From an uncultured Gammaproteobacteria bacterium (GTDB taxonomy: Bacteria > Patescibacteriota > Microgenomatia > UBA8517), in NCBI GenBank assembly GCA_964600575.1, contig CAZRJH010000003.1, forward strand, positions 81,640-145,639: a DNA stretch of 64,000 nt, in the 5' to 3' direction. The notes beneath the pieces are model-generated. The model worked only from the letters and a program-made list of their open reading frames with translations. It made no database searches and was not told the origin of the DNA. Below, piece by piece: positions 12,496-47,790 of this stretch. Each line of letters starts with the position of its first letter. Position 1 is the first letter of the stretch. The translations under genes and the position numbers were made by a program.

Positions 12496-12503
12496 ACACC
12501 CAT

Positions 12504-24929: not shown

Positions 24930-26387
24930 ATGAAAAATTTTTTTAATAAAAACAAATTTTTAATATTCATCTGCCTTTTGGGCTTCGTGTTATATTTTCC
25001 GTCACTTTTTGGATTTTACACTAACGATGATTTCTATCACCTAAAGTTGGCAAACGCAAAAACTGTAGGAGATTTTTTTAACTTCTTTAATCTTTTTAAA
25101 AGCGCCGGAGGACAGCTCTTGTATAGGCCGCTGACCACCCATGTCTTTTATTTCCTAGGCTGGTCTTTATTTGACCTAAACCCGTTGTGGCTTCACGTTG
25201 TTTCGTTTGTTATGTATTTTTTTACAATTTTTATTGTTCAAAGGATTTCTTTTGAAATCACACAAGACAACAAGAGGTCGATTTTGGTAGCATTCCTTTA
25301 CGGTGTTTCGGCAAGCCATTTTGGCCATTTATATTATTTGGCAACAGAAATTATTTTGGCGGTTTTTTTCTTTCCTGCCGTTTATTTTTTTATTAGGTAT
25401 ATAAAAAGCGGGAAGATTCTTTTCTACTTTTATACATTTGTATTCTTTGTGTTTGGGTTAATGGCTAAGGAAAACTCAATTGTTTTGCTTGGAGTATATC
25501 CGTTGTCTTTCGCTTTATTAAAATACAAAAAAATCTCGGTTGTTGATGCAAAATTATTTGTAAAGATTTATATTCCGTTTATTTTGATTTCAATGGTTTA
25601 TTTATATTTACATTTTTCAAAATACGGTGTTGTAAGTGGAGACACTTATTCATTTAACTTTTCACCTTTAAGAGCTGTCAATACCATTGCTTGGTATCTT
25701 TTTTGGTCATTCAACATTCCGGAAATGTTTTTGGATTTTATTGGTCCGGGTTTAAAAGTTAATCAAAACCTAACTCTGTTCTGGGGAGGATATGTCTATC
25801 CAATTGTCACACTGTTTATCTCACAGATTGTTATTCTTTCTGTGATTTTTTACAGAAGGATAAAAAATATTACCAATAATGTAACCATTTATTTGTTTTC
25901 TGTTGTCTGGTTTGTTTTTACCCTAGCTCCAATATTGTTTCTACCGGAACATAAGTTTAGTTTTTATTTAACTCTACCGCTTTTTGGGGTGGCATTGTTT
26001 ATTTCGGAAGTTATTTATAAACAAAATAAAAAGATGATAGTGCTATTCTTGTTGCTGTGGGTTTTCACATCAGTTTTGACGCTCAAGCTAACGTTTGTGA
26101 CCAACTGGATAACCCAAGGCCAAGCTATTTCTAAAAGGGTTGATTTATTTTTTAAGGAAAATTCTCAAAAATTCATAAATAAACAAATATATTTTATAGA
26201 TACGGATAAAGATGACAGCTTGCCTTGGTCTCCAACCGAAACTGTCAAGACGGCACTTTCGGATAAAAACTATTTCGACGTGTTTCACCCGGATATTTCT
26301 GAGAATATACATTATTGGGGATACGAAACCTTACCTGAAGAAAAAGATATTTATGTAATCAACTCCAGAATTTTTCTGGGTTATTGA
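24930..26387 (+). CDS. Polytopic GT-C-like membrane protein (PMT_2/DUF2723-like)
   Basis: The 485-aa protein has more than 10 TM segments. The N-terminal loop 'FYTNDDFYHLKLA' contains an acidic pair (a D-D variant of the GT-C loop-1 motif), and there is a short C-terminal soluble domain. Confidence 0.45.
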   Translation: MKNFFNKNKFLIFICLLGFVLYFPSLFGFYTNDDFYHLKLANAKTVGDFFNFFNLFKSAGGQLLYRPLTTHVFYFLGWSLFDLNPLWLHVVSFVMYFFTIFIVQRISFEITQDNKRSILVAFLYGVSASHFGHLYYLATEIILAVFFFPAVYFFIRYIKSGKILFYFYTFVFFVFGLMAKENSIVLLGVYPLSFALLKYKKISVVDAKLFVKIYIPFILISMVYLYLHFSKYGVVSGDTYSFNFSPLRAVNTIAWYLFWSFNIPEMFLDFIGPGLKVNQNLTLFWGGYVYPIVTLFISQIVILSVIFYRRIKNITNNVTIYLFSVVWFVFTLAPILFLPEHKFSFYLTLPLFGVALFISEVIYKQNKKMIVLFLLLWVFTSVLTLKLTFVTNWITQGQAISKRVDLFFKENSQKFINKQIYFIDTDKDDSLPWSPTETVKTALSDKNYFDVFHPDISENIHYWGYETLPEEKDIYVINSRIFLGY

Positions 26388-28210: not shown

Positions 28211-29221
28211 ATGAAAAAAATTTCTAAAGCTGTTTATTTGCTTTTCCCTTTTTTCTCGGTATTGTCCTTGGCTGCGCTTTTTATAGAAAGCGTAACTTAT
28301 TCTGGTTTTTTTGCTAAATATGTTTTGTTGGATGCAAAGCTGATAATGATTTTTGACATAGCTTTGGGTCTCTTCTTGGTTATGGGTAAAAATGGTTTCG
28401 ATGTTCAAAAATCCAGTGTATACAACGGTTTACACAGCCTTGTTTTTCATCTTAGTTACTTGTTCTCACCAGTTCTAGTCCTTTTTTATTACTTGATGGT
28501 CTCTGTTGAGACTACAAACTATCCAAATTTTGTTTTCTCAAGCTACCATATTATCCCTGACAATTTTATGTATTTGGTTTTTTTGGATGTATACCTGGTG
28601 GTACTTGGTGTTTTGGTCGAAAAACCTCATTTGAAGGCACTTTTACCTAAGTTTTATAACTCAATTAATGACGACCGCGAGGACAAACTGATAAACTCTT
28701 CAAGAGTATTGCTTGGTCTCCAATCTTTGATTGTAATATTTGTTTTAAGTAATTTTGCCAAAACATCGCGTGAAATTCTAAAAAGTAATATTTTTATTTT
28801 TCATAATTTGAATTATTCATATGACCAAAAAATGACTTCAAGTTGGAACGATTTTTACAGGTTCATGTTTTTAGTTAAAAAAGTAACCCCCGAAAACTCA
28901 GTAATAGCGATACCGCCTTCCGTGAGACCTTGGTTATCTGAGGGAAATAGCGTTTTGGTCCGGTATTTTCTCTATCCTAGAAAGTTGATCTCGCCGGATG
29001 AACCAAAAACACAAAATCTAACCCCTCAATATTATTTATTGGCAAAAGGGTTGTGGAAGGCAAGCAACCCCGAAGATTACGGCTGGCCAAAAATTAGAAT
29101 TGATTCAGAAGAGATTTTCTATTTTGATTTAGCATCGGGTAAAGTAGTCGCTAAGAAATCGGGTTATAATCCGGAAGACCTAGCTAATAAGGATGCTTGG
29201 GGTGTAATAAAAACTAAATAA
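28211..29221 (+). CDS. Integral membrane protein of unknown function
   Basis: The 336-aa protein has an N-terminal signal/TM segment and about 6 hydrophobic segments in its N-terminal half, with a soluble C-terminal domain. It has no recognisable catalytic motif. Confidence 0.35.
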   Translation: MKKISKAVYLLFPFFSVLSLAALFIESVTYSGFFAKYVLLDAKLIMIFDIALGLFLVMGKNGFDVQKSSVYNGLHSLVFHLSYLFSPVLVLFYYLMVSVETTNYPNFVFSSYHIIPDNFMYLVFLDVYLVVLGVLVEKPHLKALLPKFYNSINDDREDKLINSSRVLLGLQSLIVIFVLSNFAKTSREILKSNIFIFHNLNYSYDQKMTSSWNDFYRFMFLVKKVTPENSVIAIPPSVRPWLSEGNSVLVRYFLYPRKLISPDEPKTQNLTPQYYLLAKGLWKASNPEDYGWPKIRIDSEEIFYFDLASGKVVAKKSGYNPEDLANKDAWGVIKTK

Positions 29222-29224
29222 CCA

Positions 29225-30568
29225 ATGTTTACCTCATTTATAACTATATTCATTTTTGCACTGATAACTTTGTTTGGTTATTTTGTTGTCAACATAATCC
29301 AGGGGCGTAATTTACAGTTTTTAGAAAAGTTAGCATTGGGTTTTCTTGTTGGTATCGGTTTTCATACGCTTGTACTATTTATCTTAAACATATTTGGATA
29401 CAAGTTTTCTCCTGGCAACGCCTTTTTTGTTTTGACCATGGAAGTGGTGTTTGCAATATTTTTGAATTTATTAAGTTCGAAGTTTAGAGTTAACGGAAAT
29501 AAAAAGAATACTAAATTAGACGACAAACTCGATTTGTTAGAAAAGCTTGGTTTCTCTTTGCTTGCGATCCTTTTTATGTCTTCGTTAGCTCACAACCTTT
29601 ATTGGCCCATCGCCGACTGGGACGCACTTACGTTGTATGATTTTCGGGCGAGGGTGTTTGCAGAAACAGGATTCATGGATCAAGTATTATCGATTCATAG
29701 GTATTATTTGGGGTATCCGTTGTTTACCTCGATAACTCACACCGTTGTATATTTATATGGTTCCACAAACGCTCATTTTGTTTATTCACTTTTCTACGGC
29801 TCTTTCATCCTTCTATTTTTTAAAAGGCTTTCTGTTGTTGTTCAAAGAAAAAAAGCACTATTCTTTGCATTGGCTTTGGCGCTGACGGGTGAAATATATT
29901 CTCATTCCACATTGGCATACACAAATTTGCCATACACCATTTATTATTCGTTAGGTTTAATTTATCTTTTTTCTTGGCTTAGAACTAAATCGATTGGCGA
30001 TCTAATAACTTCGGCCTTGTTAGTGGGGCTTAGCAGTTGGGTAAGAAGCTCGGAGCCATTTTGGGTCGCTCCCGTTATAGTGGTGGCATTGGTAACTTTC
30101 GTTGAACGTAGTTGGGGTAAGGGTTTATTTTATGCATTGGCTGTGTTGGGTTTCAAAGCTCCGTGGAACGCTTTTCTGAGAAGCTTTTATCCCGACACGA
30201 CATCTTCTTGGGTTGTGCAGCAAAAGGTTGATTTATATTTATTATTTTACAGGTTTATTGAGGTCGCCACTTATGTTGCTAAAAATGTTATCAAAAAAGA
30301 AATGCTGCTGTATGCCATGTTTGCTCTAAGTTTGTTTTTGATAAAGAAGAAAGAAAAATCTACAAAAATATTTGCCAGTATTATTATTTTAAACATGTTA
30401 ATAGTTTTTGGTGGAATATATGTATATAGCTTCGTCTATGCTAAATGGGTTTTGGTAGGGGACTCTGTTTCTAGAATGTCGATGATTTTTATACCTTTAG
30501 TTATTTTCTTTCTTGCACTTTTTTTCAACGATGAAAACCCTGCTAAGGCCAGGTCTAAAAAGAAATGA
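29225..30568 (+). CDS. Polytopic membrane protein, possible GT-C-fold glycosyltransferase
   Basis: The 447-aa protein has more than 10 TM helices. The periplasmic-loop segment 'WPIADWDALTLYDFRARVFAE' carries acidic and aromatic residues. The family is uncertain. Confidence 0.35.
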   Translation: MFTSFITIFIFALITLFGYFVVNIIQGRNLQFLEKLALGFLVGIGFHTLVLFILNIFGYKFSPGNAFFVLTMEVVFAIFLNLLSSKFRVNGNKKNTKLDDKLDLLEKLGFSLLAILFMSSLAHNLYWPIADWDALTLYDFRARVFAETGFMDQVLSIHRYYLGYPLFTSITHTVVYLYGSTNAHFVYSLFYGSFILLFFKRLSVVVQRKKALFFALALALTGEIYSHSTLAYTNLPYTIYYSLGLIYLFSWLRTKSIGDLITSALLVGLSSWVRSSEPFWVAPVIVVALVTFVERSWGKGLFYALAVLGFKAPWNAFLRSFYPDTTSSWVVQQKVDLYLLFYRFIEVATYVAKNVIKKEMLLYAMFALSLFLIKKKEKSTKIFASIIILNMLIVFGGIYVYSFVYAKWVLVGDSVSRMSMIFIPLVIFFLALFFNDENPAKARSKKK

Positions 30569-31647
30569 CAAACATACTTTTTGTGGGTTTTGGATTATCG
30601 AAATCAAGGCACGAAGCCGTTTCTAAAAACACGATTTCTTTAATAAAAATTTTAGGCACCAGCTCTAAAGCAAGTATTTACAACATCGGTTATTCTAGAG
30701 GAAAGAAGTCGGGTATCTTAACAATGTTCGCGGCCGTTTTAAACTATAAAAAAATTAGGTCTGACATTGTCAAAATCTCAAAGAGGAGGAAGATTACGCA
30801 CTTATACGATACATTTGTGATGCCGGGGGCTTCGCTCATATTTACACTTCCGCTTAAGCATGAACTACCAAATATCTCTTTTATAAAAGAGATTCATAAT
30901 AACTACGGGTTTTCCAAGAGTCGCGAACCGGAAAGTCTTATAAGGTTTTTTTTAAATACAAGATGGCAGCTAAAGAAAATAATAAGCGGTTTCGATAAGA
31001 TAGTTGCAAGGAATTTATACTTGGCAAAAAAACATCGGGGTATATATCTGCCTCCGTTGATAAATATTTTTCCTCATAAAAGACGAAGTTCGAACAGAAA
31101 AAAGCTTAGATTTTGTTACCTAGGACATTCTATGAAAAAGAAAGGCCTGGACGAACTATTGAGGTTGTTGTCGATTTTGCCGAAGTCTTTAATAAGTGAG
31201 GTCGTTTTTACTTTTGCTTTGAGTCCTATAGGAAAACCCGAATTTTTTAGGAAAAAAATAGAAGAGATATCAATTAAAAAAAATATCAGTTCTGTCTGTG
31301 TAACACATGTTAAACCTGAAGTTTTTTTTAGGCAGCAGGATGTTTTGTGCCTACCGCTAAGAGATGAGTTTGGCTCTGCCGGAGGTTTCAATACGGCACT
31401 TGAAGCAATGGAGGCTGGTTGTTTGGTTTTAACTACCTCGACAAAAATATCAAAATCAATAATTCAAAACAATAAAAACGGGTTCTTAGTTAAAAAAGGG
31501 GATGCCGTTTCAATTCTTAAAGTATTGAAAAAAATCGTAAGGAAACAAATCTCGATTTCACGGATTACAGAAAAGGCCAGGGCTGATATAATTGGAAACC
31601 ATTCAATGGAAGAGGTAAGAAAAGTATTATTAAATATTTATGAGTAA
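30565..31647 (+). CDS. GT4-family glycosyltransferase
   Basis: 'FGSAGGFNTALEAMEAGCLVLTTS' and 'NGFLVKKGD' are the GT4 E-x7-E region. Confidence 0.65.
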   Translation: MTNILFVGFGLSKSRHEAVSKNTISLIKILGTSSKASIYNIGYSRGKKSGILTMFAAVLNYKKIRSDIVKISKRRKITHLYDTFVMPGASLIFTLPLKHELPNISFIKEIHNNYGFSKSREPESLIRFFLNTRWQLKKIISGFDKIVARNLYLAKKHRGIYLPPLINIFPHKRRSSNRKKLRFCYLGHSMKKKGLDELLRLLSILPKSLISEVVFTFALSPIGKPEFFRKKIEEISIKKNISSVCVTHVKPEVFFRQQDVLCLPLRDEFGSAGGFNTALEAMEAGCLVLTTSTKISKSIIQNNKNGFLVKKGDAVSILKVLKKIVRKQISISRITEKARADIIGNHSMEEVRKVLLNIYE

Positions 31648-32380
31648 GGCAGATTTAATAGAAATAAAAAAACACTATTCAGAAGGTGGTGTCGTAAAAG
31701 AATACAATCGAATTAGATTTGGAGGGATCGGCGGCAGATATATAAATGACAATGAGATTTCTCCAAACATAACTTTACTGAAATCTACCTTCAAAAATCC
31801 GAGCAAAATTAAAGTTTTGGATATTGGAGCAGGCAGGGGCCGTCTTTCACATCCGGTAAAAAAGTTGGGGTTTGACGTTTATTGTCTGGATTCCAGCAAG
31901 GAGATGGTTAAGGTGTTAAGAAAGGTAATTTCTAGGAAAAACATATTTATTCAATCTGCCTTCGAGAGGATAAAATCTCAAGATAAATTTAACGTTGTTA
32001 CAGCGATGAGATTTTTTGACCACTTCAAGCTTTCGGATCAAAAAAAGATTTTGCTAAACGTAAAGAAAAATATTTCAAAAAACGGTTATGTATTGTTCTC
32101 TGCACTTAATGCCCAAGGAATGGAAAGCCTGGTGTCCAGCTTGTTTTATTTCGGTAAAGTTAATTTTTATTATCCTCATAGCGATTACGAAAAGATGTTC
32201 AAAGACTGCGGTTTTAAAGTTGTGGCAAGAGAGGATAAGTTCTTTTTTCCCAGAGGAGTATTTTTACGTCTGCAAAATATATCATTTCTTGTTAAACCTG
32301 TAATATTCTTGGATATACTTCTTAGCAAGGTGTTTAAGTCGAGTTGTTCTTATTTTGTTTACCTTCTCCAAATCAAATGA
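31640..32380 (+). CDS. Class I SAM-dependent methyltransferase
   Basis: Motif I 'VLDIGAGRGRLS' and the post-I acidic residue 'CLDSS' are present. Confidence 0.65.
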   Translation: MSKADLIEIKKHYSEGGVVKEYNRIRFGGIGGRYINDNEISPNITLLKSTFKNPSKIKVLDIGAGRGRLSHPVKKLGFDVYCLDSSKEMVKVLRKVISRKNIFIQSAFERIKSQDKFNVVTAMRFFDHFKLSDQKKILLNVKKNISKNGYVLFSALNAQGMESLVSSLFYFGKVNFYYPHSDYEKMFKDCGFKVVAREDKFFFPRGVFLRLQNISFLVKPVIFLDILLSKVFKSSCSYFVYLLQIK

Positions 32381-33441
32381 TCTGTATTTTCCTAGGAACA
32401 AGACCTGAGATCATTAAACTTTCACCTGTTATCAAATTGCTTATTGGTACAAACAAGAAGTTTAAAATTATTCATACCAATCAGCACTTTTCATCAAACA
32501 TGGATAGTGATTTCTTTAGATCTTTGGAAATTCCCAAGCCCGATTTTAATTTAAAAGTAAAAGAACGCACTAATAGTGCGATGGTGTCGGAAATTATTTT
32601 TAAAAGCGTAAAGGTTTTGGAAAAAATTAAACCCGATGTTGTTTTGGTTCAAGGTGATACCAACAGTGTTTTAGGCGGAGCCATATCATCAGTCAAATTG
32701 AGAATTCCTGTAGGACATGTGGAGGCAGGACTTAGGAGCTATGACGACTCCATGCCGGAGGAATTCAACAGAAGATTGACGGATCATGTGTCTTCCTTTT
32801 TATTTTGTCCGACTCGACAGCAGAAAAACATTCTATTAAAAGAGGGGATTTCGAAGCATAAAATCTTTATCACCGGCAACACAATTGTTGATGCAGTTAA
32901 AAATAACTTGGAGTTGGTAAGAGAAAATAGAACAGTGTTATCAAAATATTTACTTCTTACAGTTCATAGACCTTCAAATGTTGACGACAAAGCTACATTT
33001 ATGAAGATTATTCGTGGTATCGAAGTTCTGTCAAAAAAACTTAAAATGAACGTGGTATTTCCGGTTCACCCCAGAACTAAAAAGAAGTTGTCTGATTTTA
33101 AAATAAAATTAAATAAAGATGTTTTTAAAACTCTAGAACCTGTGGGTTATCTTGAGATGTTAAATTATCAAAAAGATGCACAAATTATATTAACGGATTC
33201 GGGTGGCGTGCAGGAGGAAGCCTGCATACTCAACGTACCGTGTGTAACTATAAGGGATAATACGGAAAGGCCCGAGACAGTTGGTGTCGGTGCAAACATG
33301 CTTGCCGGTACCAACACTGACAGTATTGTTAAAAGTTCTCTACAAATGTTCAAAGCTGTACGTGGTTGGAGCAACCCTTATGGAGACGGCACATCGGCAA
33401 AAAAAATACTGAACATTTTAGACCAAAACCACCTTCTATGA
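32377..33441 (+). CDS. wecB: UDP-N-acetylglucosamine 2-epimerase (non-hydrolysing), WecB/MnaA family
   Basis: 'FLGTRPEIIKLSPVI', 'IHTNQHF', 'VLVQGDTNSVLGGAISS', 'PVGHVEAGLRSYD..MPEEFNRRLTDH', 'TVHRPSNVDD', 'PVHPRT' and 'ILTDSGGVQEEACILNVPCVTIRDNTERPETV' are the canonical epimerase_2 motifs. The start at ATG 32377 gives an ATGA overlap with the upstream methyltransferase. Confidence 0.85.
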   Translation: MICIFLGTRPEIIKLSPVIKLLIGTNKKFKIIHTNQHFSSNMDSDFFRSLEIPKPDFNLKVKERTNSAMVSEIIFKSVKVLEKIKPDVVLVQGDTNSVLGGAISSVKLRIPVGHVEAGLRSYDDSMPEEFNRRLTDHVSSFLFCPTRQQKNILLKEGISKHKIFITGNTIVDAVKNNLELVRENRTVLSKYLLLTVHRPSNVDDKATFMKIIRGIEVLSKKLKMNVVFPVHPRTKKKLSDFKIKLNKDVFKTLEPVGYLEMLNYQKDAQIILTDSGGVQEEACILNVPCVTIRDNTERPETVGVGANMLAGTNTDSIVKSSLQMFKAVRGWSNPYGDGTSAKKILNILDQNHLL

Positions 33442-34607
33442 ACATTTTGTTTGTTGTAGATTATTATCAGCCGGAGATCGGATACGGTTCTTATTATATA
33501 CCAAGGGAGCTTGCCAAAAGCGGGCATAAAGTGACAATCCTTACCTCAAACTATTATTACCCATTTCCAAACTACAACGAGACGGCCGGTAAAATACTGG
33601 GACCCAGGAGGTTAAAACCAGGCACAAACCTCTCTAACGGGGTTAGGGTGGTGCGCCAGCATATGTGGTTCGAGATTTTTACTAGGGCCTTTTTTGGCGG
33701 TCATTTACAGGCGCTCCGTCGCTATAAGCCAAGTATTGTAATAGTAGACAAAACTGCGGGGTATAGTCAGGTTCTTATGTGCTTATTTAAACATGCCTAC
33801 AATTACAGACTTATTTCGATCGATGCCCACCTGCCCTCCGGTTTTGTTGCTGAAGGAAATTTGTTAGCAAAAAACCTTTTCTACTGGTTTTTCCGGTTTT
33901 TTTTCTCGGGAATTGTAAACAAAAACGTAGACAAGTTCATTGCAGTTCAGGAGGAAACAAAATCTATCATGAAAAAATATTATGGTATAAAAGGCAAGAT
34001 AGTTGACATTCCCCTAGGTACGGATATTGATGTTTTCCGTTTTAGTAAAAAGCAAAGATTAAAAGTTAGGAAAGACTTTGGGATTGGCGCCGGCGATTTT
34101 GTTGTTATATACACGGGTAAAATAATAGTCGAAAAGGGTGTTCATCTACTTTTTGAAGCAATGGATAAACTTTGCAAGAATAATAAAAACCTTAAACTTT
34201 TGCTTGTCGGTAGCGGAACAAAGGAGTATTTAGATAGTTGTTATTCAAAAATAAGTCCTAAATACAAAAAAAACATCATAGAAGCCGGATTCGTTGTAGC
34301 CAGAGACTTACCAAAATTTTATTCCGCATCGGATTTGGCGGTATGGCCCTTGCAGGAGTCTATGTCAATGAACGATGCCGCGGCTTGCTGTTTGCCATTC
34401 ATAGCAAACAACAAAATTGGTGCCAAATTTAGAATCAAAAACGACAATGCACTTCTTTATAAGAAAGGAAATAGTGACGATCTTGCCGAAAAAATCGGCT
34501 ATCTGTATCGAAATAAAACTTTGGCAAAAGAAATGGGCAACAGGGGAAGACACTTGATGGAGAAAGATCTTAGTTGGAAAAAAATTGCCGCGAGGTATAT
34601 ATCATGA
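33438..34607 (+). CDS. GT4-family glycosyltransferase
   Basis: The start is at ATG 33438 (MNILFVVDYY), giving an ATGA overlap with wecB. It has a GT-B N-terminal domain and a C-terminal 'SMSMNDAAACCLPFIANNKIG' region. Confidence 0.6.
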   Translation: MNILFVVDYYQPEIGYGSYYIPRELAKSGHKVTILTSNYYYPFPNYNETAGKILGPRRLKPGTNLSNGVRVVRQHMWFEIFTRAFFGGHLQALRRYKPSIVIVDKTAGYSQVLMCLFKHAYNYRLISIDAHLPSGFVAEGNLLAKNLFYWFFRFFFSGIVNKNVDKFIAVQEETKSIMKKYYGIKGKIVDIPLGTDIDVFRFSKKQRLKVRKDFGIGAGDFVVIYTGKIIVEKGVHLLFEAMDKLCKNNKNLKLLLVGSGTKEYLDSCYSKISPKYKKNIIEAGFVVARDLPKFYSASDLAVWPLQESMSMNDAAACCLPFIANNKIGAKFRIKNDNALLYKKGNSDDLAEKIGYLYRNKTLAKEMGNRGRHLMEKDLSWKKIAARYIS

Positions 34608-35746
34608 GAATAATAAAAATTGTCTTAAGGGATTTCCTAGGATTAAAGTTTAAGGTTTTTAAAAACATTCGTCATATAAAAAGTGCTGTTTCTTGGGTTA
34701 AGGAAGCCCAGTTGGTTACAGGAACGGGTGGTGTCTCTGCATGGTACAGATTTGATAAAGGTTGGGGCGAACCTTTTATAGAGACCACCGGTTATCTCAT
34801 TACTACAATGCTTGAAACTTTTTCCTTACTTAATATTAAATCCTGCCGACAAATGGCTTATTCGATGGCGGACTTCGTTGTCAAAATGCAATTACCGAGT
34901 GGAGGATTCAGAACATATATCACAAACGACAACCCTACAATATTTAACACAGCCCAAGATTTATCTGGTTTGTGTGATATATACAAATATTCCAAATTAA
35001 AGCGTTATTACTCATCCGCAAAACTAGCAGCCGATTTCTTGATAAAAAACCAAAATAAAGACGGTTCATGGGTTAAATATTCGTACGACGGAAGGTCACA
35101 CTCTTACGATAGCAAGGTCGGCCATGCCCTACTCAAATTTTATCAAATATCAAAGAAAACCAAATACAAGAAGGCTGCAGTCTTGTGTTTACATAAGGTG
35201 CTAAAATACCAAGACAACAACGGTTGGTTCAAAAATGCCGAATTACCCGGATTTGTAAACCCGCCCACTCATACAATAGCTTATGTTATAGAAGGCCTGC
35301 TGGATTCCGGAATATTACTAAAAAACAAAAATTTTATTAAGGCGGCAAGTAGGGCAGCTGACAAATTAATGCAATATTTTGAAAATAACAAATTCATGCC
35401 GGCTACTTTTAATAACATTTGGGAATCTTACGACAAATATTCTTGTCTTACCGGAAACGCTCAGATTTCGGTTGTGTGGTCGAAGCTTTACAAGATAACG
35501 AACAATAAAAAGTACTTGATAAATACAATAGAAATTAATAACTACTTAAAATCTTTACAAGATTGTAGTAGCAAGAGCAAGAATATACTGGGGGGAATTA
35601 AGGGTAGTCACCCTGTATACGGTGATTTGTTTAAAAACAAAGGTTATTGTAGATTTGCGTTTATTAATTGGGGAGCGAAATATTTTATAGATGCGTTGTT
35701 AATGGAGGAGTCAATTACAAAAGCAAAGGAGGTTTTATATGTTTAA
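34604..35746 (+). CDS. Prenyltransferase/squalene-cyclase-like alpha/alpha-toroid repeat protein (unknown function)
   Basis: There are three evenly spaced Q-x2-3-(D/N)-G-(S/G)-(W/F) repeats ('QLPSGGF', 'QNKDGSW', 'QDNNGWF'), the PF00432/SQHop_cyclase-type repeat. The protein is soluble and has no TM segments. The start at ATG 34604 gives an ATGA overlap. Confidence 0.5.
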   Translation: MRIIKIVLRDFLGLKFKVFKNIRHIKSAVSWVKEAQLVTGTGGVSAWYRFDKGWGEPFIETTGYLITTMLETFSLLNIKSCRQMAYSMADFVVKMQLPSGGFRTYITNDNPTIFNTAQDLSGLCDIYKYSKLKRYYSSAKLAADFLIKNQNKDGSWVKYSYDGRSHSYDSKVGHALLKFYQISKKTKYKKAAVLCLHKVLKYQDNNGWFKNAELPGFVNPPTHTIAYVIEGLLDSGILLKNKNFIKAASRAADKLMQYFENNKFMPATFNNIWESYDKYSCLTGNAQISVVWSKLYKITNNKKYLINTIEINNYLKSLQDCSSKSKNILGGIKGSHPVYGDLFKNKGYCRFAFINWGAKYFIDALLMEESITKAKEVLYV

Positions 35747-36593
35747 TCAGATTTCCGCTTTGTGGGATGTCTTAAATCACCCTTTAAATAAGCAAAACAG
35801 ATTAAGGGCATTTTTTAGGATTATTTGGTGGAAATTAAACCAAATCATTCTAAAAATCCCGGCTATTGTTGAAATGGAAAAAGGAGTTGTTTGCGTATGC
35901 TATCCGGATAGCTCTTATAGCGGGTTGGTTGTTTACAAACGTTTGCCGGAATACAACGAAATGAAGTACGTCTACAGTAATCTGAAAGAAGGCGAAATAT
36001 TTATTGATATTGGTGCCAATATTGGTGCGGTAAGTTTACTAGCCGCCTCAAAAGTTGGCTCAAAGGGTATTGTTTATGCATTCGAACCCGACAAAAACGT
36101 ATTGCCGAGATTGTATGAAAATATAAATCTAAACAACTTTCATAATGTTGAAGTAATTAATAGTGCGGTTTCAGATAAAATTTCCAAATTAAAGTTCGTT
36201 AACGAGGGTCTTTCTGAGGTCAGCCATTTGGCTTATACCGATAAACAAAAGAACGGCAAATCTAATTTGATATCATCAACCACCCTAGATAGATTCTTAA
36301 AACAAAGAAAAATTAAAAAGATTAAGATGGTGAAAGTAGATGTTGAGGGTGCGGAAATGAAAGTTCTAAAAGGGGCTAGGAATGCGCTTTTGTCAACTAA
36401 GCTTCTGTTGATAGAAATAAATAAAAATTCAATCAAGTACGGATATACTTTCAGCCAATCGTTAAATTTTATAAAGAATCTAGGTTTCTACACCTATATA
36501 TTTGAGGCGTCCGGAAAACTTACCAAAATTGACGATCCTGTAGCGTTCGATAAATCGATAAACATTCTGGCTATAAATCAAAAATGGAAATGA
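35739..36593 (+). CDS. FkbM-family SAM-dependent methyltransferase
   Basis: 'GEIFIDIGANIGAVSL', 'VYAFEPDKNVLPRLYEN', 'ISKLKF' and 'VKVDVEGAEMKVLKGA' are the FkbM-domain motifs. Confidence 0.75.
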   Translation: MFNQISALWDVLNHPLNKQNRLRAFFRIIWWKLNQIILKIPAIVEMEKGVVCVCYPDSSYSGLVVYKRLPEYNEMKYVYSNLKEGEIFIDIGANIGAVSLLAASKVGSKGIVYAFEPDKNVLPRLYENINLNNFHNVEVINSAVSDKISKLKFVNEGLSEVSHLAYTDKQKNGKSNLISSTTLDRFLKQRKIKKIKMVKVDVEGAEMKVLKGARNALLSTKLLLIEINKNSIKYGYTFSQSLNFIKNLGFYTYIFEASGKLTKIDDPVAFDKSINILAINQKWK

Positions 36594-37315
36594 AAAATGT
36601 CAGGTTAACACATCCGACCTACAAAATAATGACCTCCTTTTTGGACGAATATCTAAAAGATAAAAAAAGGGTATCATTATTAGATTACGGATGTGGTAGC
36701 GGTTATTTGCTTGAGCTATTGCCGAAACGTAAGATAGCAAAATATACCGGTTACGAGACCTCGGCCAACGCTATTAGTACGGCACGGAAAAATTACGAGA
36801 AATTAAAAAATGTAAGATTTGTTAAAGTCGACGTGCAAAAACCGTTACGTTTTAATCAGAGTAAAGTCGATATTGTTATTGCAATTGGCGTTTTGCAATA
36901 CATGTCGCAGGAACAGGTGGCTAACTTTATCGTACAAGTTTCTAATATTTTAAAAAAGGGCGGCATTCTCCTTATCAGTACGGTTACTGATCATTTAGCA
37001 TATAGATTTTTCAACTTGTACGGCTTGTTTTTACCTAACAGGTTTCTTAACAAAAAGAAAACGGTGTCAGGGATTACTAAACGTGGACTTATAATTGAAA
37101 AAGTCTTTGAAAAAGGATTATTTTTTGGACCGCTTTTTTATCACAATTTGGTTTTAGCTTTTGATTTTGTTGACAAAGTACTTTTTAGGACCAAAGGTAC
37201 ATTAGGGCCATTTGGAAAAACATCCAGAAAAGCAGCTTATTTTGTTGCAGAAGCGGAATATTTACTACCATTTAATGTCGGTTATACAATGTATATAAAG
37301 GCACATAAGAAATGA
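36584..37315 (+). CDS. Class I SAM-dependent methyltransferase
   Basis: Motif I 'LLDYGCGSGYLL', the post-I acidic residue 'GYETS', and motif II/III 'VDIVIAIGVLQYM' are present. Confidence 0.65.
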   Translation: MEMKNVRLTHPTYKIMTSFLDEYLKDKKRVSLLDYGCGSGYLLELLPKRKIAKYTGYETSANAISTARKNYEKLKNVRFVKVDVQKPLRFNQSKVDIVIAIGVLQYMSQEQVANFIVQVSNILKKGGILLISTVTDHLAYRFFNLYGLFLPNRFLNKKKTVSGITKRGLIIEKVFEKGLFFGPLFYHNLVLAFDFVDKVLFRTKGTLGPFGKTSRKAAYFVAEAEYLLPFNVGYTMYIKAHKK

Positions 37316-38976
37316 AAAAAATAGTTAATATTCTGTTCGCTTCCGGTTTCTTTTTGTTCTTGTTTGCCTTGATTTTGTCATTGGTGACCTATAAATTTTC
37401 GGGGAATAAATATCTGTCCTTTTCGGACTCGGCAAAGTTCGCAGATGTTGCTAGAAGTATAAGCACAGGGGAGGGGTACTATTCAAATTTTAAATTTTTC
37501 AGCTGGTTGTCGTTGTCCGATTTAAAAAATGATATTTCCGACGCCTCGGGGATATTGCCTTTGTATCCTTTGGTTTTGTCTGTCTTCTTCAGGTTTGCCG
37601 GTGTCTCTGATTTCGTAGTAATGACATGCTCGGCTATTTTCTTTGGATTTACGGTTTGGATAACTTATCATCTTGCCCTAAAGATGTTTGGCAAGACGGT
37701 CGGAATTTTCTCCGCTCTTGCAGTAGCTGTTGATAAAAGCATGCTTTATTATTCAACAAGCGGTGCATCGGAAACTCTTTTTATATTTCTAATACTTTTA
37801 ACACTCTACTTTTTCGGTAACGAAAGCCGGCACGGCAGGTACTTAGGCTTTTTGGGTTTGATTTTTTTGTATTTTACTAAGTTTCAGTCGTTGATATACA
37901 TATTTCCGCTAATCATTTTTTATTGCCTAAATAAATTTGAGATTAAAAAAGCGTTAGTTGTTTTTCTTGGAATGGTTATTTTACTTTTTACTTTGGATAA
38001 GATTTATTTTAGTTTTGTAAAGACTCCACTTTTTCTATATTCAATCAGTACACAGACCAAGAGTGCTGTTTTAAATTACACCTCCGGTTCCGGATCAGCG
38101 TCGGGTTTTTTGCGAGGTGTACAAACAAGTTTGGATTTGACAGAAGTATTCAAGAAAGTGTTTTACAATCTTTATAATTTTTATAAATTATTACCCGACA
38201 TTCTCAATCCCTATATATTTTCATTTTTCCTTGTAGGGTTGTTCGTTTTTAAAGGAGGTGGCAGGACTTTTATCTTTAAGCTAACAGCATTTTTTATGGT
38301 CTCACTCACTTTTCTGGTAGCCGCCTCAAGTATACCTTTCTTTAGATATATCCACCCTATTATACCCTTGGTCTACATTATTGGAGTTGCTACTTTAAAC
38401 GACTTTGTAAGTTTAATTAATTTTCCTTTGGGTGGAAAGTTTATAAAGCAAAACAAACCAACACAAGATTTATACAGGTTGTTTTTGTTATCAATACTAC
38501 TGGCTTACTTTGCTCTTGGCCAGACAGTAGGCTCGATATTTTTAGACACCAGATTTGCCAAAGGGGTCTACAATTTTGATAAGCCCCCGGTTTATGTTCA
38601 ACTCTCAAACGTTTTGAAAGAAAAATTAAAAAAGGATGACATTGTAATAACCAATCTTGATACCTGGGGCAGCTGGTACGGTAAAACCAAAACTGTTTGG
38701 TATCCTTACTACCCAAAAATGCTTATTGATAGGCAAACTAACACAATCCCATTTGATGCGATATATTTGACTAGTTATAAGATGAATGATGAAAATTACT
38801 ATATGGCGGAGGAGTGGAGACAAATATTTAACAACCCGGATGATAAAAGTAAATGGACTTGTGAAGGTTGCGACATTATTGCTAAAGAATTTGAGATAAA
38901 AGGTAAATATTTATTCGAAGGCAACTCAAATTACGAGAATGAGGTGGCAAGATCTTTGCTTCTTGTGAGAAAATAA
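37312..38976 (+). CDS. GT-C membrane glycosyltransferase, ArnT/PMT_2-like
   Basis: The 554-aa polytopic protein has an N-terminal loop 'SFSDSAKFADVARSISTGEGYY' (D/E pair) followed by more than 10 TM helices and a C-terminal soluble domain. Confidence 0.55.
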   Translation: MKKIVNILFASGFFLFLFALILSLVTYKFSGNKYLSFSDSAKFADVARSISTGEGYYSNFKFFSWLSLSDLKNDISDASGILPLYPLVLSVFFRFAGVSDFVVMTCSAIFFGFTVWITYHLALKMFGKTVGIFSALAVAVDKSMLYYSTSGASETLFIFLILLTLYFFGNESRHGRYLGFLGLIFLYFTKFQSLIYIFPLIIFYCLNKFEIKKALVVFLGMVILLFTLDKIYFSFVKTPLFLYSISTQTKSAVLNYTSGSGSASGFLRGVQTSLDLTEVFKKVFYNLYNFYKLLPDILNPYIFSFFLVGLFVFKGGGRTFIFKLTAFFMVSLTFLVAASSIPFFRYIHPIIPLVYIIGVATLNDFVSLINFPLGGKFIKQNKPTQDLYRLFLLSILLAYFALGQTVGSIFLDTRFAKGVYNFDKPPVYVQLSNVLKEKLKKDDIVITNLDTWGSWYGKTKTVWYPYYPKMLIDRQTNTIPFDAIYLTSYKMNDENYYMAEEWRQIFNNPDDKSKWTCEGCDIIAKEFEIKGKYLFEGNSNYENEVARSLLLVRK

Positions 38977-38981
38977 AATGG

Positions 38982-41069
38982 ATGAAAGTTGTAATAATCC
39001 AAAGCCTACTTTCCCCGTATAGGTATCCGCTTTTCGATGTTCTTTCTTATGTTTACGATCTTAGCGTTTGGTTTATGGGACGTCGTGTTAAGAATAGGGT
39101 GTGGAATATTTCAGATATAAAATACCACCTTTTTAAATATAGGTTTTTATCGGGGGTTACTTTGAATATTGGTATTGAAGATAATTATCCGTTTTGGATA
39201 AATCTCACAACTCCAATAGAGATTTACAAAACAAAGCCGCAAGTTGTAGTAATTTTTGGATGGGACTCTCTAACCTCGTTTTTAGTTGTTTACTTTAGGT
39301 TCATGTACCCCTCAACAAAAATCATAATTTTTTCTGAAAGTACAAAGTACGAACTAAGTTGGAGAAGAGATATAACTAAGCCGTTGGTAAGAAGTATGTT
39401 AAGTAGGGTTGATTTTTGTCTAGCGGCAGGAGATAGAGCATCTTCCTATCTGGAAACATTGGGAGTTGCGGGTAATAAAATTGCAATTGCCCCAACAACA
39501 AACGATGTTGATAAGTATGTTTACCTTACAGACAAATACAAAAAGCAAAGGGAAGCGCTTAGGAATGCGATGGGGTACAACGAAAACGATGTCGTTGTTA
39601 TGTTTTATGGACAGTTAATAAAACGAAAAGGCGTCGATCTTCTTGTGGAAGCCTATTCTCGATTGACCCAAACATGCGGCTACTTAAAGTTGCTTATAAT
39701 AGGCGACGGAAAATTATTACCCGACTTAATAAAAAAAGTATCCGACCTCAATTTATCCGATGTGACAATTCTTCCAAACCCGGGAGATCATGCCATTTGT
39801 AAGTATTATGCATCTGCAGATATATTTGTTTTACCTTCCAGGAATGACACTTGGGGGTTAGTGGTCAACGAAGCTATGTGTTCTGGTTTGCCTGTTATTG
39901 TTTCTGACAAAGTGGGTTCCGGAAGCGAGTTGGTTAAAGAGGGTGAAAATGGTTTTGTTTTTAAGTCTGATGATGTTGACGATTTGGTTAGAGTAGTTAA
40001 TAAATTAGCGGAAGACGAAGGATTGCGTCGTAAATTTGGAAAAGCCTCCTCAAAAATAATTCAAAACTTTAGACCGGAAAACACACTCAAAGGGTATGTA
40101 GAGGCGATAGGTAGGACTATAGATTTGGCTTTGGGTCCTTCCACTTACAGAAATATAAAATTTTTAAAAGATAAAAAAGCAGATTTTGCTTCCGTAATAA
40201 TTCCCGTATTTAATGACCCGGCGGGGCTTGAAGCTACGTTAAGTTCTTTGTTTGTAAGTGGTGTTGAAAAGAGGGCGGAGATAATTGTGGCTAACGATGG
40301 TGGCTATGAAACGGTTTCGAATGTTTGCGGCAAATACAAAGTTTTTGAAGTAAAAACCAAATACCGAAAAGGGTCTTATAACGCCAGAAATTTGGCAGTT
40401 TCATCTTCCTGTGGTGAAAAAATACTATTTGTAGATGCCGGAACGGCGGTTGGAAAAAATTGGTTTGACGCCGCGGTTTCAACTTTGAAAGACTGTGATT
40501 ACGTTGGAGGACCAATTAATGTAACTGGTGGTGGGGGTTTTTTGAATGTGTTCGAAAGAGAAAGAGAATTTCCTGTAAGAGAGTTTATGGAAGACATGAA
40601 CTTTGCGCCTACTACTAACCTTGGAATCACAAGGCAACTTATAGAAACAGTAGGGGGGTTTGATGCCAGGCTCGAATCTTCGGGGGACTATGAGTTTGGA
40701 AACAGGGTATTTTTGAAGGCTGGTTATACCCAAATTTTTAACGAAAAAATGGTAGTTTATCATCACCCGCGAAACTTCAAAGATATGTTAATAAAACAAA
40801 AAAGACTTGCAAAAGGTTTTGTAGATCTTGGGCGGTATTATCCGGATCGCTTTGTCGGTATAAAAAAAAGTTTGATTGTTTCGTTAATAAAGGCGGTAAT
40901 CCCGCCTTTCTGGCTTTTTTTTAAGAATTCTTGGAGAAAGTTAAGTTTTTCGGATAAGATTCCTGTTTTTCTGTTTAGTTATATATTTTCGTTCATCCAG
41001 CACGTGTTTTTTGCGGGATACATATTTAAATCGATTATTAAACCCCGTGTGAAAGTTCACGCTCAGTGA
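38982..41069 (+). CDS. Bifunctional glycosyltransferase: N-terminal GT4 (GT-B) fused to C-terminal GT2 (GT-A)
   Basis: Residues about 1-380 carry 'TWGLVVNEAMCSGLPVIVSDKVGSGSELVKEGENGFVF' (GT4). Residues about 395-690 carry 'ASVIIPVFNDPAGL', 'IIVANDGG' and 'FVDAGT' (GT2). The C-terminal tail is hydrophobic. Confidence 0.65.
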   Translation: MKVVIIQSLLSPYRYPLFDVLSYVYDLSVWFMGRRVKNRVWNISDIKYHLFKYRFLSGVTLNIGIEDNYPFWINLTTPIEIYKTKPQVVVIFGWDSLTSFLVVYFRFMYPSTKIIIFSESTKYELSWRRDITKPLVRSMLSRVDFCLAAGDRASSYLETLGVAGNKIAIAPTTNDVDKYVYLTDKYKKQREALRNAMGYNENDVVVMFYGQLIKRKGVDLLVEAYSRLTQTCGYLKLLIIGDGKLLPDLIKKVSDLNLSDVTILPNPGDHAICKYYASADIFVLPSRNDTWGLVVNEAMCSGLPVIVSDKVGSGSELVKEGENGFVFKSDDVDDLVRVVNKLAEDEGLRRKFGKASSKIIQNFRPENTLKGYVEAIGRTIDLALGPSTYRNIKFLKDKKADFASVIIPVFNDPAGLEATLSSLFVSGVEKRAEIIVANDGGYETVSNVCGKYKVFEVKTKYRKGSYNARNLAVSSSCGEKILFVDAGTAVGKNWFDAAVSTLKDCDYVGGPINVTGGGGFLNVFEREREFPVREFMEDMNFAPTTNLGITRQLIETVGGFDARLESSGDYEFGNRVFLKAGYTQIFNEKMVVYHHPRNFKDMLIKQKRLAKGFVDLGRYYPDRFVGIKKSLIVSLIKAVIPPFWLFFKNSWRKLSFSDKIPVFLFSYIFSFIQHVFFAGYIFKSIIKPRVKVHAQ

Positions 41070-46531: not shown

Positions 46532-47790
46532 AAAATTTATTTAGCAACAAGCTCCACCTGTTTATTTTTATAGCGATAACTATTCTTTCGATTTATTCAC
46601 ATTTTAAAAATTATACTAATTTAGTTAACTTCAACTTAGACCCGCCTACTCATCTAACCGATGCTAAAAATATAGTTGAGTCGGGAAAGATTAATCTTGT
46701 CGGCCCCATGATAACTAGCAAAGAAGTCTTTGGAAGAAAGATTTTTTTGGGTCCATTTTATTATTACCTCTTGCAAGCTGCAGGGATAGTTACAAGATGG
46801 GATGTCATTATGATAAGTGTTTTTTTTACAATGATTTGGCCAGTCACTTTAGCAATTTTGTTTTTTTGGATAAGCGGTTTATTTGGGCCTTTAATTGCCC
46901 TCCCGATTTACGCAATCAGTTCCTTTATTCCTGAATTTATTGTATTTTCCCGACAGATTTGGAATTTGCAGCTGATACCTTTGTTTTCACTTTTGTTTTT
47001 GATTTTTGTTTTTCGTAGAAAAAATATTTATGACTACTTTTGGGCCGGTTTATTTTGGGGGCTATCATTTAATGTTCACTATGCCTCAATACTTTTTTTG
47101 CCCATCGCCGTTTACTTTTTTGCAAAAGACATTAAATCTAAAAGCAACTTTGTTAACAATTGGGCAACGGTTGCTTTCGGTTTGGCTTTGGCGGAGTTAC
47201 CCCTGATCATTTTTGAACTAAGGCACAATTTTTACAATCTACAAACAATTATTTTTCAATTAAAATACGGGGAATTATCCGCAGGCTATAAATTCAATCT
47301 TTGGTATTATTATGTACTTCCACTCTTCCCGCTCGCTTTTTACTTGATTGCTTCAAAGCTTGGCAATGTGAGAAACAAGAAACACCTTAAATACTTTCTA
47401 TTGTTGACTTGGCTACTTGCCGGTTTACTTTTTGTTAGCTCGGTAAACAGTCCGGGCCAGAGGCCTTTGCACCCGCCAGGGTGGACAGTAAATAGACAAA
47501 AGGAAATTGCCGATATAATAGTAAGTGAGAAGGAGAGGAATTTTGAGGTAGCCCAGACTATAAGTTCGGATACAAGATCGATGGAGCTCAGATGGTGGCT
47601 TAGACAAAAGGGAGTATTGCCGATGAGTGTGGAAGACTATCCCAAGGCAAGTGTGTTGTATTTGGTTTCAACCAAAGATAGACCGCCGGAAACAGAAGGT
47701 GTGTGGGAGGTGTCTTCCATAAGGCCCTTTAAAGTGGTTTACGAGAAAGATTTTGGCGACGGGATCGTGTTTTACAAACTTAAAAAATAA
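46528..47790 (+). CDS. Polytopic membrane protein, GT-C-like
   Basis: The 420-aa protein has about 10 TM helices followed by a C-terminal soluble domain. There is an ATGA overlap with the upstream gene. Confidence 0.4.
   Translation: MKNLFSNKLHLFIFIAITILSIYSHFKNYTNLVNFNLDPPTHLTDAKNIVESGKINLVGPMITSKEVFGRKIFLGPFYYYLLQAAGIVTRWDVIMISVFFTMIWPVTLAILFFWISGLFGPLIALPIYAISSFIPEFIVFSRQIWNLQLIPLFSLLFLIFVFRRKNIYDYFWAGLFWGLSFNVHYASILFLPIAVYFFAKDIKSKSNFVNNWATVAFGLALAELPLIIFELRHNFYNLQTIIFQLKYGELSAGYKFNLWYYYVLPLFPLAFYLIASKLGNVRNKKHLKYFLLLTWLLAGLLFVSSVNSPGQRPLHPPGWTVNRQKEIADIIVSEKERNFEVAQTISSDTRSMELRWWLRQKGVLPMSVEDYPKASVLYLVSTKDRPPETEGVWEVSSIRPFKVVYEKDFGDGIVFYKLKK

Follow-up and report, generated by a model that had tools for sequence, protein, structure and literature searches.

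The only soluble single-domain toroids with genetic evidence for a role in glycan assembly are AglQ of Haloferax volcanii (HVO_1523; PMC3827465) and Agl32 of Halobacterium salinarum (VNG1058H), whose deletion replaces iduronic acid (IdoA) by glucuronic acid (GlcA) in the N-glycan (PMC12624080, PMC13308652). The structural neighbours of both are cellobiose 2-epimerase, the AGE (N-acylglucosamine 2-epimerase) family, mannose isomerase, glycoside hydrolase family 88 (GH88), and polysaccharide lyase family 10 (PL10), and the catalytic residues of those enzymes are lacking in both (PMC12624080, PMC13308652, PMC3827465). Another described system with a barrel of this kind is the methylmannose polysaccharide (MMP) cluster of mycobacteria, in which MmpH, a cytoplasmic (alpha/alpha)6 endo-alpha-(1,4)-mannosidase of ~373 aa, is one product of four genes encoding a GT4 glycosyltransferase, the (alpha/alpha)6 hydrolase, and two methyltransferases (PMC9883506). 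Here we describe a 380-aa protein, referred to as the barrel protein, that is encoded in a 64,000-nucleotide stretch of contig CAZRJH010000003.1 (assembly GCA_964600575.1; this whole stretch is called the window below). We conclude that the barrel protein is a soluble enzyme of a large, unnamed six-hairpin family working with glycosyltransferases in the assembly of cell-surface glycans, where it probably modifies a sugar after that sugar has been added.

Similar to Agl32 and AglQ, which have ~370 aa, the barrel protein is a soluble single alpha-helical toroid whose gene lies in a glycan-assembly cluster beside glycosyltransferases and methyltransferases, and its structural neighbours match those published for the two archaeal proteins. 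The barrel family is itself uncharacterised, although six-hairpin carbohydrate-active barrels for glycan tailoring are already known as a kind.

An AlphaFold2 model of the barrel protein, generated from a 51-sequence alignment, has a mean predicted local distance difference test score (pLDDT) of 97.7 and a predicted template modelling score (pTM) of 0.95. It contains 12 long helices forming six hairpins, with turns of 2-3 residues alternating with loops of 19-39 residues, i.e., the fold is predicted to be an (alpha/alpha)6 barrel, and it is a single barrel rather than the two-domain architecture of the cyclases. When the model was searched against the PDB with Foldseek, the top match was the GH88 unsaturated glucuronyl hydrolase 3wiw (template modelling score (TM) 0.74/0.76, 17% identity), followed by cellobiose 2-epimerases, a glucose 2-epimerase, a mannose isomerase, and an AGE-family protein (TM 0.68-0.73), and then by GH76. 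Terpene synthases and cyclases (drimenyl-diphosphate synthase, oxidosqualene cyclase) ranked lower, at TM 0.53-0.56, whereas GH88 and AGE-type barrels gave TM 0.72-0.74 against the model. The predicted structure thereby places the barrel protein with the carbohydrate-active six-hairpin type.

The gene itself is translated from start to finish with zero internal stops, and the public assemblies use the same gene model (P0001, 380 aa, 100% identical). At 34604, its ATG and the TGA that ends the upstream GT4 gene share the bases ATGA, with GAGG located 8 nt upstream, and the FkbM methyltransferase gene begins 8 nt before the barrel stop. No 19-residue stretch of the protein is hydrophobic enough for a membrane segment. 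Three Q-x3-G-x-(W/F) motifs are found, spaced by 54 and then 53 residues, and 51 homologues show conservation at the Q, G, and aromatic positions of the motifs. When the protein was shuffled 200,000 times, at least one motif appeared in 1% of the shuffles and three motifs appeared in none, so the three motifs are not a product of chance. Two weaker, degenerate copies stand beside the three clear ones, at Q36...G43 (Q36 conserved in 48 of the 51 homologues and G43 in all 51) and at Q319...G330/G334. This Q-x-x-D-G-x-W hairpin motif is common to the whole six-hairpin/toroid superfamily and is not diagnostic of prenyl chemistry.

Profile searches assign the barrel protein to no described family. 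In Pfam, Pec_lyase (PF09492) is the sole model above threshold (30.9 bits vs. a cut-off of 22), and this match is partial, with residues 112-172 covering profile positions 35-95 of 292 (61 positions). Below their cut-offs are Prenyltrans (PF00432, 20.3 vs. 26.5 bits), SQHop_cyclase_C (PF13243, 20.9 vs. 26.1 bits), GH88 (PF07470, 17.9 vs. 26.6), LanC (PF05147, 15.8 vs. 23.2), and Pectate_lyase_2. Among NCBIfam models nothing comes near its cut-off: TIGR02474 scores 28.6 vs. 189.8, with no full-length PL10 match, and TIGR01787 scores 27.4 vs. 322.7 bits. At E <= 10, neither C5-epim_C (PF06662) nor GH127 (PF07944) is matched by the barrel protein. The DxDD motif of class II cyclases was not found in it, and neither was the Asp-x-Cys...His zinc site of prenyltransferase beta subunits, the conserved order being His223...Cys281...Asp363 with no D-x-C pair.

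Among the 51 homologues, weak Pfam matches with similar E-values are spread over many models: Pec_lyase in 51, SQHop_cyclase_C in 48, GH127 in 47 (best catalytic-domain match E 2e-11), C5-epim_C in 45, GH88 in 40, and LANC in 33, while AGE (PF07221) matches just one of the 51, at 1e-3. The PF06662 matches in these relatives cover profile positions 31-82 only, which is one hairpin. Searching PDB sequences with a profile of the family gave a similar picture, with squalene-hopene cyclase at 9e-9 (an E-value summed over repeats), a GH127-like protein at 2e-7, GH76 at 5e-7, cellobiose 2-epimerase at 3e-6 (spanning one hairpin), PL10 at 1e-5, LANCL2 at 2e-5, and the D-glucuronyl C5-epimerase Glce at 2e-3 (with no significant stretch). 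Such scattered weak matches mark a distinct family that has only the generic hairpin motif in common with its neighbours.

Several more specific assignments were tried and rejected: PL10, since the PF09492 match covers 61 of 292 positions; LanC, since there is one conserved Cys, no Cys-Cys-His site, and a sub-threshold PF05147 score; GH127, since a single invariant Cys stands without the Glu-Cys3 site; and a prenyltransferase or cyclase, since the models are sub-threshold, DxDD is absent, and the TM values are worse. A sequence-only reading of this DNA had reported three spaced Q-type repeats in a soluble alpha/alpha toroid, and all of this agrees with our results: the repeats lie at exactly the positions given, no membrane-like segment is present, and the model has twelve helices in six hairpins. 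Its expectation that profile models would support the repeats holds for Pec_lyase, over its 61 positions, and fails for SQHop_cyclase_C and Prenyltrans. Its label of "prenyltransferase/terpene-cyclase-like" has to be abandoned on the scores, motif, and TM values given above, and so does its suggestion of a LanC-like modifier, given the one conserved Cys; the start of the C281 helix nonetheless resembles the zinc-ligand helix of LanC.

Residue conservation was computed over 375 aligned members. E60, Y64, H223, Y227, C281, Q287, Y348, K359, D363, W54, W156, W356, and F114 are at least 98-99% conserved, and the window protein carries all of them. By the helix boundaries of the AlphaFold2 model, these invariant residues are either part of the long loops or lie no more than two turns into the six helices that come after them. 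The helix starts at these places come together at the barrel's catalytic mouth in (alpha/alpha)6 enzymes, which argues for an enzyme rather than a scaffold. With the geometry taken from this topology, the invariant residues would form one pocket, in which H223 and Y227 are a candidate acid/base pair. Uronate lyases and epimerases typically have a His/Tyr/Lys/Gln set. C281 is the single conserved Cys of the family, and a profile of the C-terminal half alone has LanC-like 2 and LANCL1 as its best PDB matches; the helix start C281-L-T-G-N-A-Q aligns with the zinc-ligand helix start of LANCL1, G-L-C-H-G-S-A-G, one residue out of register. We would like to note that the window protein is off-consensus at four positions outside the invariant set (nt 34952-35197), namely A117 (G in 92%), K171 (R in 87%), H174 (W in 88%), and K198 (W in 93%), which may reflect a different substrate in the subgroup from the Candidate Phyla Radiation (CPR).

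The genomic setting of the family is that of glycan biosynthesis. Relatives at 63%, 47%, 45%, and 42-43% identity share a five-gene module encoding WecB, GT4, the barrel protein, an FkbM methyltransferase, and a class I methyltransferase, and some of them add a UDP-sugar 6-dehydrogenase or fuse one to WecB. To look beyond these relatives we surveyed 80 family loci from different species (L008-L087), whose flanks are overwhelmingly glycan-biosynthetic, with GT4 as the commonest immediate neighbour. Most family loci are of the Wzx/Wzy or exosortase type; the Dechloromonas barrel gene, for instance, sits in an exosortase-type exopolysaccharide cluster. Within 6 kb of the barrel gene, WecB is encoded in 26-27 of the 80 loci, an AsnB-type amidotransferase in 17, and a UDP-sugar 6-dehydrogenase in 11, and at least one uronate-linked marker is present in 29. 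An AAC(3)-like N-acetyltransferase is found in 18 of the 80 loci and a formyltransferase-domain protein in 16, with zero co-occurrence, and in the CPR cassette the FkbM and class I methyltransferases take the place of these N-acyltransferases. Among the 25 most frequent families of 15 N-acyltransferase-linked loci there was no DegT aminotransferase and no CE4/PIG-L deacetylase, i.e., no standard source of the amine to be acylated, which is suggestive only.

Natural fusions tie the barrel to glycosyltransferases more directly. Single-domain proteins with a median N-terminal extension of 7 residues account for 358 of 381 family members, and because only one of the 381 has a hydrophobic N-terminus, the family is cytoplasmic. 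The other 23 members are fusions, with GT4 as partner in at least seven (in either order), GT26 (WecG/TagA), GT2, formyltransferase, and class I methyltransferase in two each, and an AAC(3)-like protein in one. In the fusion P0127, the N-terminal half is the orthologue of the window's upstream GT4 (phmmer 3.4e-133) and is joined to the barrel in the gene order of the window, and this is Rosetta-stone evidence for the window's GT4-barrel pair.

The sequence-only reading had taken the barrel gene to be translationally coupled to the upstream GT4 gene, to be followed directly by FkbM and S-adenosylmethionine (SAM)-dependent methyltransferase genes, and to act in the same pathway. The arrangement is as described, and a shared pathway gains weight from the conservation of the cassette to 42-47% identity and from the GT4::barrel fusions. 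The reading also called such a protein unexpected in a polysaccharide locus, which was mistaken, as the barrel family lives almost only in such loci; among the roles that it offered, a glycan-processing (alpha/alpha)6 barrel was the right class.

The family is large and widely spread, with 5,558 representatives at 50% identity at E <= 1e-3, 1,207 of them at E <= 1e-30, and at least 573 GTDB species of Bacteria and Archaea carrying it. Bacterial carriers include members of the CPR (Woesebacteria, Microgenomates, Paceibacterota, Saccharibacteria), Acidobacteriota, Chloroflexota, Bacteroidota, Zoogloea, and Dechloromonas denitrificans ATCC BAA-841; archaeal carriers include Woesearchaeota, Nanoarchaeota, Promethearchaeota, Methanosarcinales, and haloarchaea. 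There is no dedicated Pfam or NCBIfam model for it, literature searches turned up no publication on it, and the database names of its members conflict, from [quoted passage not shown], "terpene cyclase/mutase", "pectate lyase", and "glycoside hydrolase family 88" to "D-glucuronyl C5-epimerase family", "YyaL", "DUF1680", and "ulvan lyase N-terminal domain"; the first five of these labels are mutually incompatible. A protein search of a plasmid collection retrieved two haloarchaeal megaplasmids only, both automatically annotated, on which the barrel gene lies beside wecB, a sugar dehydrogenase gene, a GT4 gene, and "sulfatase" and "alginate lyase family" genes. Directly after the barrel gene, each of these two loci has a hypothetical open reading frame (ORF) of 65-75 aa (13131-13358 in L090, with a 4-nt overlap, and 13073-13270 in L091, after a 4-nt gap), which may encode a small partner subunit; no such small ORF is present beside the barrel gene in the window.

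The positions of the barrel gene, its motifs and candidate active-site segments, and its operon partners are collected in Table 1.

Table 1. Features of the barrel gene and its operon (positions in the window).
Feature	Positions	Strand	Description	Evidence or conservation
Operon	28211..41069	+	Eleven genes	4-10 nt overlaps or gaps <=5 nt
WecB-like protein	32377..33441	+	UDP-N-acetylglucosamine (UDP-GlcNAc) 2-epimerase, non-hydrolysing type	PF02350, 1.3e-105
Upstream GT4	33438..34607	+	Glycosyltransferase, 389 aa from ATG 33438	Pfam, gene model, conserved adjacency
Barrel gene	34604..35746	+	380-aa cytoplasmic protein, predicted (alpha/alpha)6 barrel, unnamed six-hairpin family	Translation, AlphaFold2, Foldseek, family searches
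Hairpin-loop motif 1	34709..34735	+	Degenerate, Q36-LVTGTGG-V44	Family consensus Q-D-x-x-x-D-G-G-V
Helix start after long loop 1	34781..34795	+	E60-T-T-G-Y64	E60, Y64 99% conserved
Hairpin-loop motif 2	34889..34909	+	QLPSGGF, aa 96-102	
Helix start after long loop 2	34943..34957	+	F114-N-T-A-Q118	F114 invariant; T116, Q118 >90%
Hairpin-loop motif 3	35051..35071	+	QNKDGSW, aa 150-156	
Hairpin-loop motif 4	35210..35230	+	QDNNGWF, aa 203-209	
Helix start after long loop 4	35270..35284	+	H223-T-I-A-Y227	H223, Y227 each 374/375
Helix start after long loop 5	35444..35464	+	C281-L-T-G-N-A-Q287	C281 99% (372/375), Q287 100%
Sixth loop	35558..35605	+	Q319...G330-G-I-K-G334	Q 85-96%; G330, G334 ~99%
Loop and last-helix start	35645..35692	+	Y348 (loop); W356-G-A-K359-Y-F-I-D363	Y348, W356, K359, D363 >=99%
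FkbM-family methyltransferase	35739..36593	+	8-nt overlap with barrel gene	PF05050, 1.7e-21
Class I SAM-dependent methyltransferase	36584..37315	+	10-nt overlap with FkbM gene	
GT4-GT2 fusion protein	38982..41069	+	695 aa, last operon gene	Conserved in L003/L008

The operon encodes, in order, two multi-pass membrane proteins, a GT4, a methyltransferase, the WecB-like protein, a second GT4, the barrel protein (the seventh of the eleven), the FkbM methyltransferase, the class I methyltransferase, a GT-C protein (PMT_2), and the GT4-GT2 fusion, and the same order is found in the related loci L003/L008. The best PDB match of the WecB-like protein is the UDP-GlcNAc 2-epimerase of Methanocaldococcus (4NEQ, 2e-115), and it is the presumed source of UDP-N-acetylmannosamine (UDP-ManNAc) for the GT4.

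To place the barrel family relative to AglQ, residues 28-123 of AglQ were rebuilt from the published mutagenesis primers, and a search with this fragment returned short AglQ-like fragments only. Aligning the barrel family to AglQ-like sequences with hhalign gave a probability of 96.4% and an E-value of 1.3e-9 over 112 columns. With the hidden Markov model (HMM) of the family, N-terminal fragments of AglQ and AglQ-like proteins reach 10-21 bits, whereas the C-terminal half gives -2 bits; for one AglQ-like N-terminal fragment the score is 21.5 bits vs. 5.2 for a genuine GH88-type protein from the same locus. The 120 best relatives of one haloarchaeal barrel-family member include no Halobacterium or Haloferax protein. 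As an aside, one AglQ-like gene is split into ORFs of 158 aa and 213 aa by the same frameshift in two independent assemblies (ENA, Logan; L088 6001-7084 and L089 1394-2243), in a cluster that encodes a Pect-lyase_RHGA_epim protein as well as a genuine GH88-type protein; recoding, an assembly error common to both, or a gene that truly comes in two pieces could each account for the split.

Comparison with the other described systems shows likeness and difference in each case. The gene content of the barrel cassette, with GT4, barrel, and two methyltransferases, parallels that of the MMP cluster, and to this extent the resemblance to MmpH noted in the sequence-only reading stands; a sequence relation does not, since MmpH is not among the 60 PDB sequence matches listed for the family profile (E <= 1), nor is it among the 50 Foldseek matches listed. 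The closest folds of MmpH are GH15 and GH125, whereas those of the barrel protein are GH88 and AGE, and the MMP cluster makes an intracellular polymer, whereas the island around the barrel gene carries a flippase gene along with Wzy-like and many GT-C genes typical of surface glycans. The GH88 and AGE enzymes (cellobiose 2-epimerase, N-acylglucosamine 2-epimerase, YihS) have the full-length fold in common with the barrel protein (identity 10-17% at the TM of 0.72-0.74 given above), but they act catabolically on free oligosaccharides or reducing ends, in contrast to a family found in biosynthetic loci. AGE enzymes have two catalytic His on inner helices; the barrel protein has one invariant His (H223), and by sequence position K359 lies in the region where a second would be expected.

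Similar to what we propose for the barrel protein, Glce (PF06662) of eukaryotes and bacteria has a helical toroid domain and acts on its polymer after glycosyl transfer; NCBI names one family member a "D-glucuronyl C5-epimerase family protein", and weak PF06662 matches are seen in 45 of the 51 relatives. In contrast, Glce has beta-hairpin and beta-sandwich domains that the barrel protein lacks. The likeness to LanC/LANCL consists of an invariant Cys that opens an inner-type helix within a C-x-x-G-x-A-(Q/G) motif. Neither the Cys-Cys-His site of LanC nor the Glu-Cys3 (zinc) site of GH127 is present in the barrel protein, although 47 of the 51 members weakly match GH127.

In the mechanism that we propose, the adjacent WecB would supply UDP-ManNAc, and the coupled upstream GT4 would transfer that sugar to an oligosaccharide under assembly, which is probably lipid-linked. 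The barrel protein would then bind the new residue in an aromatic-lined pocket at one mouth of the barrel and alter it chemically, after which the downstream FkbM and class I methyltransferases would decorate the product. The chemistry might be a cofactor-free proton abstraction and re-addition, i.e., an epimerisation of the glycan-bound sugar, with H223/Y227 as the base on one face and C281/K359 as that on the other, and with E60, Q287, and D363 positioning the substrate. We infer the substrate, the order of the steps, and the epimerase chemistry, and we put forward only tentatively, with more doubt than conviction, that the barrel protein is a glycan-level epimerase by analogy with Agl32, for which such an epimerisation (GlcA to IdoA) is shown genetically, and with AglQ, for which one is proposed. 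In favour of this reading are the fold and its structural neighbours, the remote homology to AglQ-like proteins, the cytoplasmic location, the coupling and fusion to glycosyltransferases, the catalytic-type invariant residues, and the uronate-linked genes near part of the family loci.

A number of observations weigh against an epimerase of this kind, the first of them most heavily. Cofactor-free C5 epimerisation is chemically easy only for uronic acids, and a uronic acid is not documented for the window because no UDP-sugar 6-dehydrogenase is encoded in its 64 kb or beside its two closest relatives; the substrates of Agl32 and AglQ are glucuronic acid residues, whereas the window encodes no uronate pathway. 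The best single structural match is a hydrolase (GH88). The alignment to AglQ-like sequences is shifted by one hairpin, and C281 has no counterpart in the AglQ-like protein of L088, whose C-terminal half is free of Cys. The relation to AglQ and Agl32 goes no further than the superfamily, in which they are a sister family and not the same one, and the barrel family obtains comparable scores with squalene cyclase, GH127, GH76, cellobiose epimerase, and LanC-like proteins. Finally, the catalytic residues of Agl32 are themselves unknown (PMC13308652).

A rival reading is that of a glycoside hydrolase or endo-glycanase for trimming or priming the GT4-made polymer in the manner of MmpH, which in mycobacteria cuts chains into primers; these are re-elongated by the GT4 ManT and decorated by methyltransferases. 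The parallel with the four-gene MMP cluster (PMC9883506), the top structural match to GH88 3wiw, the further matches to GH76 mannanases, and the near-invariant carboxylates E60 and D363, which could pair as acid and base, all point this way. Nevertheless, we regard a hydrolase as unlikely: no sequence similarity to MmpH appears among the listed PDB profile matches, Wzx/Wzy- or exosortase-type loci have only short lipid-linked repeat units in the cytoplasm, and fusion to the transferase that makes the substrate, as in the GT4 cases, would be futile unless the hydrolase served as a primer generator. In addition, D363 lies two turns into its helix, and the invariant His, Tyr, Cys, Lys, and Gln are not a typical glycoside hydrolase pair. 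The Cys and His among these residues raise the possibility of a different chemistry, that of a Cys/His-dependent, possibly zinc-containing toroid enzyme like LanC, GH127, or the prenyltransferase beta subunit, with C281 as a metal ligand or nucleophile; the reaction could then be that of a thioglycosyl-intermediate glycosidase or transglycosylase, or of a de-N-acylase exposing an amine for the neighbouring N-formyl or N-acetyl transferases. C281 (372/375) and H223 (374/375) are located at the starts of adjacent helices after long loops, the C-terminal half leads to LanC-like 2 and LANCL1 with a helix start that aligns with the zinc-ligand helix, and the GH127 catalytic-domain model matches 47 of the 51 members. 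The mutual exclusivity of the AAC(3)-like and formyltransferase neighbours, which are also fusion partners, together with the missing DegT and CE4/PIG-L proteins, would fit a de-N-acylase. We nevertheless think such an enzyme rather improbable, as there is one conserved Cys, the LanC and GH127 sites are absent, the LanC model stays below its cut-off, and no third metal ligand was identified; for the de-N-acylase in particular, the window cassette has methyltransferases rather than N-acyltransferases, and for the AAC(3)-linked members there would be little point in removing an acyl group only to re-acetylate.

The promiscuity of the fusion partners (GT4, GT2, GT26, formyl-, acetyl-, and methyltransferases) could also be that of a non-catalytic scaffold or carrier-binding subunit, holding a polyprenyl-linked intermediate or a glycan for the GT4 and the tailoring transferases, and the motif does resemble those of enzymes with isoprenoid-binding cavities, the squalene cyclases and prenyltransferases. 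We give this little credence, since nine polar or ionisable residues conserved at 99% or more across Bacteria and Archaea are the pattern of an active site, no membrane-association segment is present, and terpene cyclases fit the fold less well than carbohydrate-active barrels do. The same QW-like repeats, together with the sub-threshold PF00432 and PF13243 matches, the squalene-hopene cyclase as best PDB sequence match of the family profile, and the names that NCBI gives to several members, might be taken to indicate that the protein truly is a prenyltransferase or class II terpene cyclase with an isoprenoid substrate. This we hardly believe at all: PF00432, PF13243, and TIGR01787 are all below their cut-offs, DxDD is absent, a single barrel stands against the two-domain cyclases with low TM values, and the genomic context is exclusively glycan biosynthesis. 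A glycan-level epimerase acting after the GT4 remains the reading that we prefer, at the tentative strength given above.

Beyond the operon, the window is a glycosylation island with eight tandem GT-C paralogues, at least 12 GT2/GT4 genes, and at least 6 methyltransferase genes, and it also holds a Wzx-type flippase, a Wzy_C protein, and an NAD-dependent epimerase. No AsnB, heparinase-like, or sulfatase-like genes are present in the window. The GT-C paralogues are encoded at 4804-19140 as eight consecutive multi-pass proteins of 550-590 aa with matches to PMT_2, PMT, or PTPS_related, two of them on the minus strand, and such close packing of paralogous lipid-linked-sugar transferases is unusual; two further GT-C genes lie at 37312-38976 and 49680-51008. 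Six ORFs have no Pfam match and 5-9 predicted membrane segments (28211-29221, 29225-30568, 24930-26387, 45164-46531, 46528-47790, and 21036-22181) and may be polymerases, ligases, or flippases of unrecognised families. The operon starts with the first two of these, which accompany the cassette in L008 and L011 as well, at 33-58% identity. We would also like to note that the closest relatives of the island, L003/L008 (GCA_964599625.1) and L009 (63% and 47% identity), are deposited as "uncultured Gammaproteobacteria bacterium" metagenome-assembled genomes, while the relatives next in rank are Woesebacteria, Microgenomates, and Patescibacteria; the "Gammaproteobacteria" label of these assemblies with CPR-like islands looks doubtful.

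With the reaction of the barrel family defined, thousands of annotations could be corrected, and models of O-antigen, capsule, exopolysaccharide, and archaeal N-glycan synthesis would probably gain a tailoring step; it would also become clear whether the recently discovered epimerisation of glycans by Agl32-type proteins is one instance of a far broader class of enzymes. The surfaces of CPR and DPANN organisms are almost unknown, and the five-gene module of WecB, GT4, barrel, and two methyltransferases likely builds a methylated ManNAc-type epitope on them. It is an unlikely prospect, though one worth stating, that the family is a pan-prokaryotic toroid, either cofactor-free or metal-assisted through Cys and His, that carries out an undescribed tailoring of cytoplasmic lipid-linked glycans, e.g., the epimerisation of non-uronate amino sugars or the removal of N-acyl groups, by which a free amine would be passed on to the mutually exclusive N-formyl, N-acetyl, or methyl transferases beside it or fused to it. 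If this were true, the barrel would be a missing general step in the diversification of surface glycans, with carriers that range from CPR bacteria to haloarchaea and number at least 573 species.

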